From: Alphaproteobacteria bacterium
GTDB lineage: Bacteria; Pseudomonadota; Alphaproteobacteria; UBA828
Length of the DNA: 64,000 nt
Assembly (NCBI GenBank): GCA_963422645.2
Contig: CAXXVO010000007.1
Location: 576,001-640,000 of the forward strand
Direction: 5' to 3'
The notes below the pieces were generated by a model. It saw only the letters and a list, made by a program, of their open reading frames with translations. It had not been told where the DNA came from and made no database searches. Below, piece after piece: positions 48,481 through 56,842 of the stretch. Made by a program: the position numbers and the translations under genes. Numbering within the stretch: the stretch's first letter is position 1; every line of letters begins with the position of its first letter.

Positions 48481-51238
48481 GCCGCTGGCGACGAAAGCCT
48501 CCACGCGTCCCTGCGCTGGCCGAGGCGCATTCGACATTCCCCGGTAAAGCCCGGCATCCCGTCCGGCCCAAGATCAGAGACTCTCGGGCCAAATTCCTGA
48601 GATTCTGCCCTCGTGGGCGCCTCGATCCGGCCGATGAAGGCGAGCCGCGCAGGCACCGACGACCGGTGCGGAAACGCGGCGTGCGGCCGGGCTGGCGCCA
48701 TACCGTTCTGCCCTTCTCGGTGCGTCCGCTGCCGTCCGCGCATAACAATTTCCAATCGGCCCCATTCAAAAATCCGTCTGGTTACTATGGAAGCGCTGCC
48801 CACCTGACTCGTTAGCGCATTCGTTTCGGATGCAGCCGCCACGCACAGCGCAAGCGGAGTCGGGTCATGGCAGCGCCAACCGTCGTCGAATGGATCATCT
48901 GCCCGCGGGACGTACGCTTCTCCCGCTGCGGCGCGCTGCGGTTCCGCGCTTCCACTGAAGCCTCGGGCCCGCCGCCCTGGGTCCTGCAGGCCCGCTGCGT
49001 GCCGCTGCCGGAGCCCGACCGCGGGTTCCGGAATCCGGACCCGACCCCGACAGAGCGCCGTGCACGGCTCCCCGTGCGCGGCGTTTTCGTCTTCGGAGGA
49101 ACGCAATCATGACCCATCGCCAAGCCTTCACGGCCACCGTTGGACACGCCGAACAAGAAGCGCGGGGCAGGCGCTGCTGCCCGGCGGGCCGCGTCCTCCG
49201 CGCGATACTGCGACTCACCGTCCCGGCCCTGGTTGCGGTGGCGATGCTCCTCGGCGCCGGCGCGCCGGTCCGTGCGTTCCCCGGACTCGACCAACCGAGT
49301 GTGAGCATCGCCGCAGAGCACGGTTCCTACGGCTTCGGGATCGACGATGTCATCTTCAAGCTAAGACGCGCGGGTCCGGCGGACGACGCGGTCTCGGTTC
49401 GGGTTTCGCTCGCCCAGGCCCACCTTTACCTGCCGACCGACCGGCTCAACGCGGTCGTGCGGTTCCGGGCGGGCAAGAGGGATGCGGAGTTCCGCATCCG
49501 GGCGCGGCAGTTCAACGGTCCGGCGACGCAATCGGGCGCGCTGAGCGCGACGCTGGTCGCCGCGTTCGGCTACACGGTGGGGCACCCGGACAGCGCGCGA
49601 ACCCGCCTGGTGGTCAAGAATCCGGCGATCACGGTCCGCCCGGAGCAGGCTTCCTACACCGTCGAACCCGACGACGGGGCGGTTAGGGTGACGTTCGTGG
49701 CCCGCACCGAGGGCGAGTTGCCCCGGCCCGGCAAGGCATTCTCCCTCGCGGTGTCCTCGAAAGCCGCATCCGACGAGACGGCAGCGCGCCGCGTAGCCAG
49801 GGGCGTGTCGCAAACGGTCGAATTCAAGCCGCGCGACTTCGTTTCCACGGACGGAAAGTGGGAAGCGAGCAGGACGGTCTCCTTCTCGACGGCCGAAACC
49901 GCCGAGGGCCTGGAAGTGATGTTCAAGCGCGCGGCGTCGACTCCGGAGCGAATCCGGCCGCGCAATTCCGACGGCAGCACCTGCACGGACGATGTCTGCA
50001 TGGTGCCGGTGTTCATGGCCCAAAGCGAGGAACCGACGCTCACCATCGCGGCCGGGCAGGAGAGCTACGGTTTCGGGATCGACACCGTGGTCTTCACCGT
50101 CACACGCAACGAAACCGCCGAAGGGGAGATCGGCGGCGCGGTGACACTCTCGCAGGACGAAAATTTCGTGACTAGCGTTTCCCGGACGAACTTCACCATT
50201 CCAGCAAACGAGACGAGCACGGACGTCGAGCTGTTCCGGTCGCTCTTCGACGGCGACGCAGCGCAGTCCGGCGATCTGACCGCGACCATCGAGGCAGGGG
50301 ATGGATACGCGGTCGGCACGCCCGGCTCGGCAACGACCCGGATTGTCGTGGCGGACCCGGCAGTCACGGTGCGGGCGGAGCGGGCCGCCTACCGCTTCGT
50401 CGAAGGCGGTGCCGAGGCAACCGTCGCGGTCGTCGCGCGCACCGCGCCCGGCGTGCCCCCGCCCGGCAGCAGGTTCCCGATACTGGTCTTTTCGGACCCC
50501 ACATCGGGCACGGCCACTGTTGGCGACGACTACGAAGAACTGCTGACCAATGTCGTCTTCGGCCCCGACGACTTCACCGCCACGGGCGGCGTTTGGGAGG
50601 CGCGCAAAGAGGTCTCGCTAACGATCGTCGACGACGACGTGACGGAAGCCGACGAGACCGTCGAGTTGCGGCTCCGGTCCACTCCTGATTTTACGCCGCA
50701 GAGGATCCGGCCGCGCAACGCCGACGGAAGCGCGTGCGCCGATGACGTCTGCACGGTACCGGTCACGATCGCCGCCAACGATGGACCGCCGGTGGCCCGG
50801 ATCGAGATCACACCGGTTCCACCGGCGGCAAGCGCCGACCACGGCCCCTACTACATCAAGGACGACTTCCTCGCCCTGCCGGACGACACGGTGCACGGAA
50901 GGGGCGCCACGCTGACCTTCACGCTCAACCTCGACACCGAGGTGACCGTGACCGGCACGCCCGAGCTGGTGCTCGATATCTTCGATCGCGAGCGCCGGGC
51001 GCGCTACACCGGTGGCTCGGGCTCGCGGCAACTGACCTTCACCTGGACGGTGGAGAAGGGCGACAACGACCCGGACGGGCTGGAGTTCAGATGCCGTAAT
51101 GGGGCTCGGCACCAATCGGCACCGTTGAAGCCTGTCGCGATGGTAGCGAATCGGGTGTCGTTGCCCTTACACGCTCAGCGTGTTCACGGGGTCTTGCCGC
51201 AAGGCGCGCCCCAATTCCTCGAAGGAAAGGGCAACGAC

Positions 51239-52282
51239 ATGAACGTCTATATCGGGCTGGATGTATCGCTGGCAAGCACGTCAATCTGCGTCATCGGCGA
51301 GAAGGGGAAGATCGTTACCGAGGCGCAGGTAGCCAGCACGCCTGAAGCACTCGTTGCGTTCATGGGCAAGCTGGAGCACGAGATCGCCGCGATCGGTCTT
51401 GAGGCCGGTCCCTTGTCCCACTGGTTGCACAAGGGTCTGACCGGCGCCGGCTTCGAGGCCGTGCTGATGGAGACCCGGCGGGTGAAGGCCGCGCTGAAGG
51501 CGATGCCGATCAAGACGGATCGCCGGGATGCGGAGGGCATCGCACGGCTGCTGCAGATGGGCTGGTTCCGGCCGGTGCACTGCAAGTCGGTGTCATCGCA
51601 GGAGATGCGCGCGCTGCTGACCTCGCGCAAGTCGGTGCTGAACGCGCTCACCAATATGGAGCTGTCACTGCGCGGCGTGTTGCGCAACTTCGGCCTGAAG
51701 CTGGGCCAGGTCTCCAAGGGCCGCTACGAGGCCCGCGTCCGGGAATTGATCGCCGGCAACGCGATGCTGGAAGCCGCGGCCGAACCGATCTTGCGCGCGC
51801 GGGCGGCTCTGCGCCGCGAGCTGGCCGGCCTGGAGAAGCTGGTCCGTAATCTGGCCAGGGAAGATCCGGTGTGCCGGCTGCTCATGACCATGCCCGGCGT
51901 CGGCCACGTCATAGCGCTGACCTTCATGTCCGCGATCGACGATCCCGGGCGCTTCCGAAGATCGAAGGATGTCGGCCCCTGGGTGGGGCTGACGCCGGGA
52001 CGGGCCCAATCCGGCGAGCGAGATATCGTCGGCGCCATCACGAAGTGTGGCGACGCAGGTCTGCGCTCGGCGCTCTATCAGGCTGCCACGGTGATGCTGA
52101 ACCGCACCACCGGCCCGAACTGGTTGAAGGCCTGGGCGCAGCGTCTGACGAAGCTCCGGGGCAAGAAGCGTGCAACGGTTGCCTTGGCCCGGCGCATCGG
52201 CGTGGTGCTCCATCGGATGTGGCGGGACGGCGCCGGGTTCCGGTTTACGCGCGAGGAGGCGATGGCGCTGCAGACGGCATAG
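51239..52282 (+). CDS. IS110 family recombinase/transposase
   Basis: IGLDVS, LEAG and KTDRRDA DEDD motifs; GLTP...QSG catalytic Ser. Confidence 0.95.
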   Translation: MNVYIGLDVSLASTSICVIGEKGKIVTEAQVASTPEALVAFMGKLEHEIAAIGLEAGPLSHWLHKGLTGAGFEAVLMETRRVKAALKAMPIKTDRRDAEGIARLLQMGWFRPVHCKSVSSQEMRALLTSRKSVLNALTNMELSLRGVLRNFGLKLGQVSKGRYEARVRELIAGNAMLEAAAEPILRARAALRRELAGLEKLVRNLAREDPVCRLLMTMPGVGHVIALTFMSAIDDPGRFRRSKDVGPWVGLTPGRAQSGERDIVGAITKCGDAGLRSALYQAATVMLNRTTGPNWLKAWAQRLTKLRGKKRATVALARRIGVVLHRMWRDGAGFRFTREEAMALQTA

Positions 52283-52356
52283 GCGCGGCTGCATCCCACC
52301 GACAGTCAATTAGGAGAGGAGGAAAGAGTCGCGCCTGAAGGTGGCGATCCACCGGT

Positions 52357-52524
52357 GTCCCCTCGCCGGGACGCGGTTCCCGAAGATGCGCGTTTTGAAC
52401 CCTGTTCGCCGAACCGCCCTGTTGCGGTCGAGCACGTAGATCAGATCGGCACTCGGGAATCGTCTTGGACCAGGCATGACGTTGGCGGCCGCTGCGCCGA
52501 CCACGGACGGAAGCGAGAGCCTGG
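52357..52524 (+). ncRNA. predicted bridge/seekRNA of IS110 copy 1
   Basis: 5' hairpin plus two stem/internal-loop modules with guides matching the target (AGATCAG, GAACC) and donor (ACGGAAG, GGCAT); folded by hand. Confidence 0.7.
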
Positions 52525-52820
52525 CGGCGGACACATCCGGGATCGTAGTTCCTTCTCTGTGCCGCGCCGGGCGAGTCAGTTAGCAGCTTTTGCCAAGGTA
52601 ACCACCTATGTTGACCATGCCTGGGACGACGATCGGCCGCAGGCGATGGTTCTTCATGTTCAAGAGACCGTGCCAAGCCGGAAGATCGTGAATATCTGTG
52701 TTTGACATCAACTGCCCCATTACGGAAGCGAATCGGGTGTCGTTGCCCTTACACGCTCAGCGTGTTCACGGGGTCTTGCCGCAAGGCGCGCCCCAATTCC
52801 TCGAAGGAAAGGGCAACGAC

Positions 52821-53864
52821 ATGAACGTCTATATCGGGCTGGATGTATCGCTGGCAAGCACGTCAATCTGCGTCATCGGCGAGAAGGGGAAGATCGTTAC
52901 CGAGGCGCAGGTAGCCAGCACGCCTGAAGCACTCGTTGCGTTCATGGGCAAGCTGGAGCACGAGATCGCCGCGATCGGTCTTGAGGCCGGTCCCTTGTCC
53001 CACTGGTTGCACAAGGGTCTGACCGGCGCCGGCTTCGAGGCCGTGCTGATGGAGACCCGGCGGGTGAAGGCCGCGCTGAAGGCGATGCCGATCAAGACGG
53101 ATCGCCGGGATGCGGAGGGCATCGCACGGCTGCTGCAGATGGGCTGGTTCCGGCCGGTGCACTGCAAGTCGGTGTCATCGCAGGAGATGCGCGCGCTGCT
53201 GACCTCGCGCAAGTCGGTGCTGAACGCGCTCACCAATATGGAGCTGTCACTGCGCGGCGTGTTGCGCAACTTCGGCCTGAAGCTGGGCCAGGTCTCCAAG
53301 GGCCGCTACGAGGCCCGCGTCCGGGAATTGATCGCCGGCAACGCGATGCTGGAAGCCGCGGCCGAACCGATCTTGCGCGCGCGGGCGGCTCTGCGCCGCG
53401 AGCTGGCCGGCCTGGAGAAGCTGGTCCGTAATCTGGCCAGGGAAGATCCGGTGTGCCGGCTGCTCATGACCATGCCCGGCGTCGGCCACGTCATAGCGCT
53501 GACCTTCATGTCCGCGATCGACGATCCCGGGCGCTTCCGAAGATCGAAGGATGTCGGCCCCTGGGTGGGGCTGACGCCGGGACGGGCCCAATCCGGCGAG
53601 CGAGATATCGTCGGCGCCATCACGAAGTGTGGCGACGCAGGTCTGCGCTCGGCGCTCTATCAGGCTGCCACGGTGATGCTGAACCGCACCACCGGCCCGA
53701 ACTGGTTGAAGGCCTGGGCGCAGCGTCTGACGAAGCTCCGGGGCAAGAAGCGTGCAACGGTTGCCTTGGCCCGGCGCATCGGCGTGGTGCTCCATCGGAT
53801 GTGGCGGGACGGCGCCGGGTTCCGGTTTACGCGCGAGGAGGCGATGGCGCTGCAGACGGCATAG
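52821..53864 (+). CDS. IS110 family recombinase/transposase, copy 2
   Basis: Same translation as copy 1. Confidence 0.95.
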   Translation: MNVYIGLDVSLASTSICVIGEKGKIVTEAQVASTPEALVAFMGKLEHEIAAIGLEAGPLSHWLHKGLTGAGFEAVLMETRRVKAALKAMPIKTDRRDAEGIARLLQMGWFRPVHCKSVSSQEMRALLTSRKSVLNALTNMELSLRGVLRNFGLKLGQVSKGRYEARVRELIAGNAMLEAAAEPILRARAALRRELAGLEKLVRNLAREDPVCRLLMTMPGVGHVIALTFMSAIDDPGRFRRSKDVGPWVGLTPGRAQSGERDIVGAITKCGDAGLRSALYQAATVMLNRTTGPNWLKAWAQRLTKLRGKKRATVALARRIGVVLHRMWRDGAGFRFTREEAMALQTA

Positions 53865-53938
53865 GCGCGGCTGCATCCCACCGACAGTCAATTAGGAGAG
53901 GAGGAAAGAGTCGCGCCTGAAGGTGGCGATCCACCGGT

Positions 53939-54106
53939 GTCCCCTCGCCGGGACGCGGTTCCCGAAGATGCGCGTTTTGAACCCTGTTCGCCGAACCGCC
54001 CTGTTGCGGTCGAGCACGTAGATCAGATCGGCACTCGGGAATCGTCTTGGACCAGGCATGACGTTGGCGGCCGCTGCGCCGACCACGGACGGAAGCGAGA
54101 GCCTGG
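53939..54106 (+). ncRNA. predicted bridge/seekRNA of IS110 copy 2
   Basis: Same sequence as 52357-52524, offset by 1582. Confidence 0.7.
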
Positions 54107-56842
54107 CGGCGGACACATCCGGGATCGTAGTTCCTTCTCTGTGCCGCGCCGGGCGAGTCAGTTAGCAGCTTTTGCCAAGGTAACCACCTATGTTGACCAT
54201 GCCTGGGACGACGATCGGCCGCAGGCGATGGTTCTTCATGTTCAAGAGACCGTGCCAAGCCGGAAGATCGTGAATATCTGTGTTTGACATCAACTGCCCC
54301 ATTACGGAAGGTTCCTCGACCTCAACGGCGGCACCATCCGCGACACCCAGGGCAATAACTTCGTGCCTGAGACCATCCCGGCGCAGCAATTCACCAAGCA
54401 CCGGGTGCGCGGCGGGTTGCACGCCATGCGGCTCGAGGTGTCCGGCTCGGCGCGCGAGGGCGAGCCCTTCGAGATCCGGGTAGTCCGCAACGGCGGCTTC
54501 GAGGAGGTGGCGGTGGCCGGGGTTGGCGTGGCCGACAGTGCCCTGCCGCACGAAAAGCCTTCGTTCCACTACGCGGTGAACGGGCCCGGCCGTTACCAGT
54601 TCGACTTCGATCACGGGGCGGCGAACGAGCCCGGCGTGCGGGTCTCGACGCGCACCGTGACGCCGATCGGGGACGGCGTTGCCGACGCGTCGCGCACACT
54701 GACGATACGGCTGACCGGGACCGACGCGGGCTTCCATCTGACGCCCCCCCTTGGCGACTATCGGGCCTGGTACCTGGCCGAAGGGCCGCTGGAGGTCACG
54801 GTGCCGGTGATCGACACCGGGCTGTCGCTGGGCGAGGCGGGTTTCCGGGTCCACGGGGCCTCGGTACGCGAGGCACCGGGTGCGAAGCTCGCCTTCAAGG
54901 TCAGCCTGTCGCCCCACAGCGAAGCACCGGTGACGGTGGACTACCGGACCGGAGAAGACCCGCCCAACGGGTCCAAGGCGGTCGCGGGGGAAGACTATGT
55001 GGCCACGAGCGGCACGCTGACCTTCGAGGCCGGCGAGACCCTGAAGACCGTCGAGGTGGAGGTGCTCGCCGACGATCATGACGAGGGCTTCGAGACCATG
55101 CGGCTTTTCCTGTCGAACGCGCAGGGCGCGCGCATCGATGGTGCTTCGGGGCTCGGCGTCATCAAGAATACCGGACCGATCCCGAAGGCTTGGCTGGGGC
55201 GCTTCGGGCGCACGGTGGCCGAGCAGGTGCTAGGCGCGGTCGAGAGCCGGGTGCGGGCAACGCGGCAGCCCGGCATCGAGATGACGCTCGCCGGCCAACG
55301 GGTCGGTGGCCAAGCACCGCAGGAAGCTTCACCCGCGCAACGCGATTCAGCCTGGCAAGAGCACGCCGGCCCCACGTCCCTGGCGTCGCGCGGCGTGACG
55401 CAGGGCGACCTGCTGAGCGGCACCTCCTTCGCAGTCACCGCGGAAACCGGGCAGCACGGGTATGCCACCCTCTGGGGACGCGCCGCCGTTTCCCGCTTCG
55501 ACGGCCGCGAGGGCGACCTCACGCTCGACGGCGAGGTCTCGAGCGCCATGATCGGCGTCGACTGGGCCCGTGAGAACTGGACCGCCGGTCTGATCGTCTC
55601 GCGCAGCGCCGGCGATGGCGGCTACGTCGGCCACAGCAAGGGCCGGGTGGAAGCCACGTTGACGGGCCTCTATCCTTGGGGGCGCCTTGCGCTCTCCGAG
55701 CGGGTGGACGCATGGGGCGCCGCCGGTTACGGCACGGGCGAGCTTTCCGTGACGCCGAAGAAGCCGGGGACGGACGAGGACGGCGCCACGATCCGCACCG
55801 ATCTGGACCTGCGCATGGCGGCGGCCGGGCTACGCGGAAGCCTGCTGGACGGCACCGAGGACGGCCTCACTCTGGCCGCCAAGACCGACGCGCTGATCGT
55901 GCAGACCGCGTCCGACGCGGGCCGCGGGACGGACGGCGGCAACCTGGCTGCAGCCCGGGCCACGGTAACCCGGCTGCGTCTCGGCCTAGAAGGGTCGCAG
56001 CCGATACCGCTCGAGGGCGGTGCGAGCCTGACTCCCTCCGTCGAGATCGGCGTGCGTCATGACGGCGGCGATGCCGAGACCGGGTTCGGCATCAACCTCG
56101 GCGGCGGGTTCGCCTGGTCCGATCCGGAGAGCGGGCTGGTCGCGGAGCTGCGCGGACATGCGCTTCTCACTCACGAAACAGAGGGCTTCCGCGAGCGCGG
56201 CGTTTCCGCCTCGCTCACCTGGGACCCGAAGCCGTCCTCGGCGCTCGGCCCGACGGCGACGCTGACCCAGACGGTCGGCGACCCGGCCTCTGGCGGTGCT
56301 GATGCGTTGCTGGCGCAGGGGGCGCTGACGGGCCTCGCGGCGCAGTCCGGCTCAGAGTTGGACGGTGAGGGCGACCTGCAGCATCGCCGGCTGGAAGCAA
56401 GGTTCGGCTATGGCTTCCCGGCCTGGGGCGGCCGCTTCGCGTCGGTTCCCGAGGTCGGCCTCGGCCTCTCCGACACCGGCCGGGAGTACATCCTGGGCTG
56501 GCGATTGGCGAGCGACGGGCCCGGCGCGCTCCAGCTGTCGACAGAGGCGCGTCGAATCGAGAGCAAGGGCAGCGGCCCGGTGGAGCACCGCATCGGCGCC
56601 CGCCTCTCGGCCCGGTGGTAGCCGGAAGACGGCGCGTCGTCTTCTGACGTGCTCCGGAGAGAGGCGCGGGCTGTGAACGAGGTGAGAGATGCGGGCGAGA
56701 GCGTTTCCGTTTCACACGGAAACACGCACCTTCGGTGCTAAGTAGCTGATTCGATTGCGATGGTCTTCCGTTTCTATTGACACCGGGCGCGGAATTCAAG
56801 CCGATTCCGCACCTCGCTGCAACAGATCGGAGACGCGCAATC

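Follow-up and report, generated by a model that had tools for sequence, protein, structure and literature searches.

An apparently tandem IS1111-group insertion in an alphaproteobacterium and a candidate bispecific guide RNA that matches the target sites and ends of the element

Results

An IS110-family insertion in a Calx-beta gene

The 64,000-nt stretch analysed here, referred to as the window, corresponds to G000 C8:576001-640000 in assembly GCA_963422645.2. It was found to carry an insert of 3220 bp that consists of one full copy of an insertion sequence, here designated isA, followed directly by a second copy from which the left end is missing. The full copy (51091-52728, forward strand, 1638 bp counting one AG) is a member of the IS1111 group of the IS110 family, and a second full copy, 100% identical, is present elsewhere in the genome (C16:189296-190933). 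The left-end-less copy, and with it the second occurrence of the RNA described below (53939-54106), had gone unreported in a preliminary description of the locus.

The insert lies in a gene for a large repetitive protein, the two halves of which (49109-51088 and 54311-56621) both include Calx-beta domains. The gene is broken after ...CTGGAGTTC-AG, where AG occupies 51089-51090, and picks up at GTTCCTCGAC (54311). The left junction reads GAGTTC-AG|ATGCC (51089-51091), and the right end reads TACGGA-AG|GTTCC (54303-54315), with the AG core at 54309-54310 followed by the right half of the target, GTTCC. One AG is thus found on each side, while the empty site, with which the core is common, would contain it once. 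When 51091-54310 was taken out, leaving a single AG, the host reading frame came back (...GLEF-R-FLDLNGG...), which bears out the target GAGTTC-AG-GTTCC, the ends TACGGA-AG and ATGCC, and the AG core that had been proposed beforehand. The Calx-beta gene is inactivated, or split, by the insertion of isA.

The transposase gene (51239-52282, forward strand) is intact and encodes a 347 aa protein with matches to PF01548 (59 bits) and PF02371 (82 bits), as well as to the NCBIfam model NF033542 for the IS110 family RNA-guided transposase (248 bits, cut-off 140). Its Tnp domain matched that of IS621 in the structure 8wt6 (E = 1.5e-12). Residues D8, E55, D94, D97 and S258 aligned with the catalytic residues of IS621, S258, located in GLTPGRAQSG, being aligned to IS621 S241. 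Judged by these alignments, the isA enzyme is a DEDD/Ser recombinase in which both the reading frame and the catalytic residues are intact; an intact recombinase had been supposed in the preliminary description.

The non-coding ends of isA measure 148 nt before the gene and 446 nt after it. Perfect subterminal inverted repeats of 12 bp begin 4 bases inside each end, and the left repeat, CCGTAATGGGGC (51094-51105), is 100% complementary both to the right repeat of the first copy, GCCCCATTACGG (52714-52725), and to 54296-54307 in the second. The defining features of the IS1111 group, as they are described in PMC11187229 and PMC11208160, were all found in isA, namely the domains, the inverted repeats, the long 3' non-coding region and the AG core without target duplication. 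The other isA copies carry the same AG at their ends. Among relatives of the element the search pattern for the ends required AG, so that its invariance there is not an independent test; a search by the repeats only, without the AG requirement, returned the same ag/aag context.

A predicted two-module RNA downstream of the transposase gene

The candidate bridge RNA, or seekRNA, occupies 52357-52524, within the 446-nt non-coding region 3' of the gene and in the same sense as the transposase, the location anticipated for the IS1111 group. It begins with a 5' hairpin, GUCCC-N6-GGGAC (52357-52372), which precedes the target-binding module (52373-52463). This module is built from a basal stem of 11 pairs, two of them G-U (52373-52383/52453-52463), a short UGC/GCA helix, an internal loop that includes both target guides, and an upper stem-loop. 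The donor-binding module (52470-52524) has the basal stem CCAGGC/GCCUGG, an internal loop and an upper stem-loop at 52481-52504.

In the target loop, the right-target guide is UUUUGAACCC (52393-52402), of which the segment TTTGAACC (52394-52401) complements top-strand G-GTTCAAA at the C16 copy, the base opposite the core A being a mismatched C. The left-target guide AGAUCAG (52438-52444) consists of 5 nt plus the AG core and is identical to the top strand, hence it pairs with the bottom strand. In the donor loop, the right-donor guide GGCAU (52473-52477) is the complement of the left-end start ATGCC, and its first three bases are part of the basal stem. It is followed by GA and not by CU, the complement of the core, so that this guide stops short of the core. 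The left-donor guide ACGGAAG (52507-52513) has the same sequence as the 7 bases that end the element. The target-module stem, AGATCAG, the extent and stem of module 2, ACGGAAG, and GGCAT with its partial burial in the stem were all located in the sequence where the preliminary description had placed them. The right-target guide had been given there as GAACC (52397-52401), which is present at that position and proved to be part of the longer guide; the C mismatch and the early stop of GGCAU are additions of the present analysis.

The structure was written from the alignment of the relatives' RNAs and comprises the 5' hairpin, the 11-bp basal stem, the UGC(C)/(G)GCA helix, and the upper and donor stems. 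Over 44-45 distinct sequences, 88.0% of cells were paired, as against 27-39% when the 3' partners were slid by 1-3 columns, and 19 pairs altered on both sides, as against 5-7 in the slid controls. The fold across homologs, named beforehand as a check on the RNA, was in this way upheld. Covariation is carried by the upper stems and by the target-module basal stem: the helices of the target module are 80-92% paired with 13 pairs altered on both sides, and the donor upper stem is 99.7% paired with 3 covarying pairs. The 5' hairpin (98.9% of cells paired) is without covariation because it is nearly invariant. The weakest part of the fold is the basal stem of the donor module, which is 62.9% paired family-wide, while an alternative helix that buries GGCAU reaches 64.8%; in the isA subgroup of the alignment the CCAGGC/GCCUGG stem holds, with A-U, G-U and G-C at the third pair. 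The frequent G-U pairs indicate that the structure belongs to the transposase-sense strand.

Folding energies of the single sequence were no better than those of shuffled sequences (z = 0.06 and -0.94), as is usual in G+C-rich DNA. The minimum-energy fold of the single sequence pairs the two target guides with each other and was disbelieved. RNAalifold by itself gave 24 pairs, accounting for part of the structure only; an AUGC/GCAU pairing between the modules was among them and was discarded, since relative L054 keeps the local UGCC/GGCA helix by a double change. A search of both strands of 50800-54600 against Rfam 15 gave no match at E <= 1. The segment between the stop codon and the RNA core (52283-52356) is conserved among the closer relatives and includes the purine-rich AGGAGAGGAGGAAAGAG and a GGUGG-CGAU-CCACC hairpin; it may be part of a longer precursor RNA.

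Insertion sites of isA compared with the guides

The full copy on C16 is flanked, in the element orientation, by ...GTAGATCAGATCAGATC-AG on the left and GTTCAAATGCGC... on the right, and its site, ...AGATCAGATC-AG-GTTCAAATG..., corresponds to AGATC-AG-GTTCAAA. At this site AGAUCAG equals the left flank and core at 7/7 positions, and the 5' loop segment UUUGAACC complements G-GTTCAAA without a mismatch over 8 contiguous bases, which amounts to 12 matched positions (5 + 7) beyond the AG core. A preferred target near AGATC-AG-GTTC had been predicted from the RNA alone, and it is this sequence that flanks the only other full isA copy. The C16 target (around 189295/190934) covers the 3' end of an opposite-strand gene, taking in its final two codons and stop (…HLN-LI*), so that the insertion replaces the C-terminal end of that gene.

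At the window site, AGTTC-AG-GTTCC, the left guide matches at 6/7 positions, AGATCAG against AGTTCAG, as had been noted before, and the right guide at 5/8. The window copy is located at a near-cognate site and not at a cognate one. On contig C5, a 270-bp fragment of the isA left end follows AGACC-AG, again with the left guide matching 6/7; the right side is lost, the remainder of the copy having been removed by an IS3-family element. This fragment lies at 1501-1770 of locus L010 (G000 C5:44221-47490), a nest of insertion sequences in which there is an IS3 rve-type OrfB-like frame of 301 aa with the terminal sequence TGAACCGCTCCGG..., and in which the fragment adjoins an IS21-type IstB-like frame. 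The 8-mer TTTGAACC occurs at the C5 break and was considered as an inverted cognate site; it was rejected as a chance match, being the IS3-family terminal repeat. No unoccupied perfect isA target was found in the genome assembly. Matches of 5-mers are unconvincing by themselves, and it is the flanks on C16, the permutations given below and the fold that make the case.

The sister element isB

Six copies of a sister element of 1636 bp, isB, are present in the same genome (C8:417733, C8:523876, C8:526953, C18:202919, C11:61108 and C3:192895; loci L004-L009). Over positions 1-1445 its identity with isA is 85%. When the two elements are aligned, the RNA stems are seen to be kept and the differences to be concentrated in two loop segments, UUUUGAACCC of isA being replaced by UGGGCCCACU in isB, and UAGAUCAG by UGUGGAG. 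The four isB copies with intact ends sit in ...(C/T)(T/G/A)AT(T/A)TGG-AG-TGGGCCCCTGGGG..., and these replacements follow the target ...TTGG-AG-TGGGCCCC...: the right guide GGGCCCACU complements AG-TGGGCCC at 9/9 positions, and the left-target guide UGGAG equals TGG-AG of the target. The right ends of the two elements differ as well, ACAGA-AG in isB and ACGGA-AG in isA, and at the same position of the RNA isB has ACAGAAG and not ACGGAAG.

The sequence into which isB inserts is a repeated one, ...TGACCCCC(T/G)ATTGG-AG on one side and TGGGCCCCTGGGG... on the other, and it resembles the end of an IS3-family element; in one copy an orfA-like frame, MAKHRTHRTHGIAFKRQV..., follows it. The flanks of relative L029 (OZ253557.1), ...CGCCCATGGCAA-AG-CACCGCACCCAC..., are similar to the start-codon region of the IS3-family orfA beside an isB copy. 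Such flanks suggest that other insertion sequences serve as targets for members of this clade. Two isB copies, C8:417733 and C3:192895, have aberrant right ends, that on C3 being replaced by inverted left-flank sequence. Further IS110-family remnants and more distant relatives occur at C9:177374-177448, C16:12386-13243, C14:9228-10085 and C3:18516-18641; among them are a right-end fragment of 85% identity, with ACGGA-AG-GCCGGG at its flank, and two transposase genes 64% identical. In isA, isB and the C9 fragment a TTGAC(A) hexamer has been kept 21 nt inside the right terminus (52702-52707 in the window), although the 190 nt around it cannot be aligned between isA and isB. From its sequence it may be the -35 element of a junction promoter; no convincing -10 was found across the predicted circle junction.

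Guides and sites vary together among relatives

A scan of GTDB representative genomes gave 80 loci with transposases 68-93% identical. Both ends were placed in 55 of these loci and in 5 copies of the own genome, the other 25 loci being cut by contig ends or missed by the pattern. Alignment of the relatives' 3' regions showed a conserved RNA interrupted by two hypervariable patches. For the comparison of guides and sites, flanks of at least 10 nt on the left and at least 12 nt on the right were available in 50 rows (49 of them unique), and 11 were dropped for short flanks.

Identity between the left guide and the 5 bases 5' of AG averaged 3.9/5 over the 49 rows, against 1.43 when flanks were permuted among the elements, and the longest exact match of the right guide to the reverse complement of core plus right flank averaged 6.69, against 3.56. 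None of 5000 permutations reached the observed left or right value, and the same was found with one row per guide pair (n = 34). Row by row, the left guide matched 5/5 in 17/49, the right match was at least 7 in 27/49, and both were attained in 8/49. Guide and site match poorly in some relatives (L020, L021 and L026), which probably lie at non-cognate sites. A case outside this genome is a sibling element in genome G037, the six copies of which give the site consensus GACCA-AG-ACGCAGC and the guides GACCAAG and GCUGCGUCU. The left half of the site is GACCA-AG in 5/6 copies (5/5 match) and TACCA-AG in the sixth, and the right half is ACGCAGC with 0-3 mismatches. Comparison of other insertion sites with the guides had been put forward in the preliminary description as a check, and the copy on C16, the isB copies and the six-copy consensus of G037 each match their own guides.

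The donor guides follow the ends of the elements in the same manner. The left-donor heptamer equals the last seven bases of its own element in 41/45 distinct RNAs across four end variants, among which are ACAGAAG (5), ACCGAAG (3) and ACGAAAG (1); in the four exceptions G stands in for an A of the end, which against the bottom strand would give a G-T wobble. On the other side of the loop, GGCAU complements the five bases that open the left end without fault in 36/45. Three lineages whose left end starts ATACC (L032, L041 and L050) have GGUAU or AGUAU in its place, and what differences remain come down to G-T or U-G wobbles, or a single gap. For the donor loop as a whole, all 8 exceptions were of a G-T or U-G wobble type.

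The base opposite the core A is U in about half of the relatives, and in several with otherwise well-matched sites it is A. Non-U bases at well-matched sites (e.g. L050, L052, L071 and L073-L077) suggest that this clade can do without pairing at the first core base. Immediately before the core, the right end of the relatives invariably has A, and the AU that follows the left-target guide is invariant, as are the first two bases of the left end, to which it corresponds. There was no signal for a handshake guide of the IS621 type, the base 3' of the right-target guide varying among T, G, C and A.

The left-end-less second copy

The second isA copy (52729-54310, forward strand) is without the first 56 bp and comprises element positions 57-1638; 1587 bases are 99.94% identical with a period of 1582, and the copies differ only at the junction base. 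Within it are a further transposase gene (52821-53864) and another RNA of identical sequence. The tandem junction reads ...TTACGGA-AG|CGAATCGGG..., whereas the sequence ahead of CGAATCGGG in the first copy is GATGGT-AG (51140-51146). Of the two breakpoints, one accordingly coincides exactly with the right terminus of the element, and the other is the AG of the internal site ATGGT-AG-CGAAT (51140-51151, forward strand), which is 5/7 like the right end ACGGA-AG. The internal AG was found only in isA, GG being present in isB and in the other examined relatives that carry the motif.

A breakpoint at the right terminus together with an AG behind a look-alike of that terminus points, as far as the sequence goes, to a junction that the recombinase made rather than to random duplication. 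A specific version, that the bridge recombinase joined the right end ACGGA-AG to ATGGT-AG (51140-51146) by an off-target exchange at a donor-like and not a target-like site, is put forward tentatively, and the chances are against it. Unequal exchange between sister copies is a possible route to the tandem. The junction occurs once in the assembly, and the contigs of the public sequencing runs X1, X2 and X5 end at 52727/52728, none of them spanning it, while about 1 in 100 of the raw reads of run X21 yielded no read that could be placed here; the tandem could be an assembly artefact. If the off-target exchange did take place, the product would be a 1582-bp unit with the enzyme and the RNA but without a left end, and this would offer a route to head-to-tail arrays and modular sub-elements.

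Discussion

The proposed guide RNA and the alternatives

The sequence at 52357-52524, repeated at 53939-54106, is very probably the bispecific guide RNA of an active IS1111-group element. According to the mechanism proposed, an RNA of transposase sense would be produced from the long 3' non-coding region and fold into two stem-loop modules with one internal loop each. The target loop would hold AGATC-AG-GTTCAAA and the donor loop the circle junction ACGGA-AG-ATGCC. With both loops bound, the DEDD/Ser recombinase would bring the circle junction TACGGA-AG-ATGCC to the target, where strands would be exchanged at the common AG, an exchange that would leave no target duplication. Transcription, binding by the enzyme and the circular intermediate are presumed here by analogy with ISEc11, ISPa11, ISKpn4 and IS621. 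Programmability is likewise suggested by natural variation, that between isA and isB and that among 34 distinct guide pairs.

Covariation of sequence demonstrates base-pairing and cannot by itself separate an RNA from a DNA strand, so it was considered whether the guide segments act as single-stranded DNA in the transposition complex, in the way of the subterminal guides of IS200/IS605. In keeping with a DNA guide, no match to a sigma-70-like promoter or an intrinsic terminator was found in 51050-52800, and at most 0.11 of the sampled words of the stretch were present in any of the RNA sequencing runs. However, the guides are placed 200-370 nt inward of the right end, away from the cleavage site, and the many G-U pairs of the conserved fold occur on the sense strand only. 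In addition, the RNA made from the corresponding region of relatives is described as co-purifying with the transposase and as necessary for transposition (PMC11187229), and the RNA of IS621 is visible in the solved complex (PMC11208158; 8wt6). A DNA guide is consequently judged very unlikely. Less probable still is that the 3' region has a regulatory or structural role in the transposase mRNA, through stability, attenuation or antisense action, with the likeness to flanks a by-product such as captured target sequence. It is true that the region begins directly after the stop codon, that the purine-rich stretch and hairpins upstream of 52357 are conserved too, and that IS110-family elements carry other small RNAs, Asr9 and Ssr9 of ISPpu9 being those described in PMC12288879. 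A role in the mRNA would leave unexplained why the variable positions fall only in two loop segments that track both target halves on opposite strands, and why the donor segments follow single-base changes in the element ends; the guides are also far from the ends, so captured flank sequence is no explanation.

A further alternative accepts the guide RNA and takes isA for a fossil, in which RNA and enzyme worked in an ancestor and the element is now immobile. The C opposite the core A, the near-cognate site in the window and the odd tandem would agree with this, as would one truncated copy, the lack of an empty perfect target in the genome, and the absence of the circle junction motif from the assembly. 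Against it, two full copies and a partial one are identical save for the junction base, a sign of recent movement, the reading frame is unbroken and the catalytic residues are retained, and bases other than U opposite the core A also occur in relatives at well-matched sites. Loss of mobility in isA thus appears unlikely, although it is a better candidate than the two alternatives above.

Significance

The locus adds a well-documented natural case to a mechanism established in 2024. Within one genome, two sister elements with enzymes and RNA scaffolds about 85% alike differ in the target loops and at a single donor-loop base, changes that run in step with their targets and ends. The clade, with 45 distinct RNAs, 34 guide pairs and defined sites, provides material for AG-core bridge recombinases of the IS1111 type, and the window site gives the mismatch tolerated by a natural insertion, 6/7 plus 5/8. 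For annotation, the split Calx-beta gene finds an explanation, and the 3' region of the element would be treated as a functional RNA and not as spacer.

Comparison with known systems

Durrant et al. (2024, PMC11208160) predicted a bridge RNA within the right end for 93% of IS1111 elements, so that an RNA in isA will be no surprise to a specialist. In IS1111-type elements, as described by Siddiquee et al. (2024, PMC11187229), the seekRNA is located 3' of the gene, with the match to the top strand placed 5' of the match to the bottom strand, and for ISEc11, ISPa11 and ISKpn4 the RNA is reported there to co-purify with the transposase and to be required for movement. By the description in the same source, isA resembles ISEc11, ISPa11, ISKpn4 and ISPst6 in having a transposase of the 330-350 aa class with the GL-P----SG motif (GLTPGRAQSG in isA), subterminal inverted repeats (7-17 bp in the group) and a long downstream non-coding region. 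It is nonetheless a different element, from an alphaproteobacterium and with the target AGATC-AG-GTTCAAA, and its RNA is a predicted one.

With the bridge RNA of IS621, as presented in PMC11208160 and PMC11208158, the isA RNA shares a pair of internal loops, serving target and donor respectively, and a core dinucleotide common to the left and right guides of the target loop, and the recombinases share the DEDD plus Ser arrangement. The differences, measured against the same accounts, are that the RNA is 3' of the gene in isA and 5' in IS621, that the order of guides within each loop is reversed, that the core is AG instead of CT, and that the inverted repeats are of 12 bp instead of 2-3 bp. 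Furthermore, the right-donor guide of isA does not cover the core, and no handshake-guide signal accompanies its right-target guide.

ISPpu9 of Pseudomonas putida, described by Pares-Guillen et al. (2025, PMC12288879), is like isA an IS110-family element with AG dinucleotides at both ends. In that description its bridge RNA is located upstream and transposition does not depend on the small RNA downstream, Ssr9, whereas in isA it is the downstream RNA that carries the guides. ISPpu9 is also described there as forming circles from alternative internal boxes and as having one module duplicated in tandem. The alternative site in isA is a single AG that resembles the right end, unlike the repeated box of ISPpu9; the internal boxes and tandem module of that element nevertheless constitute a precedent for the left-end-less second copy of isA.
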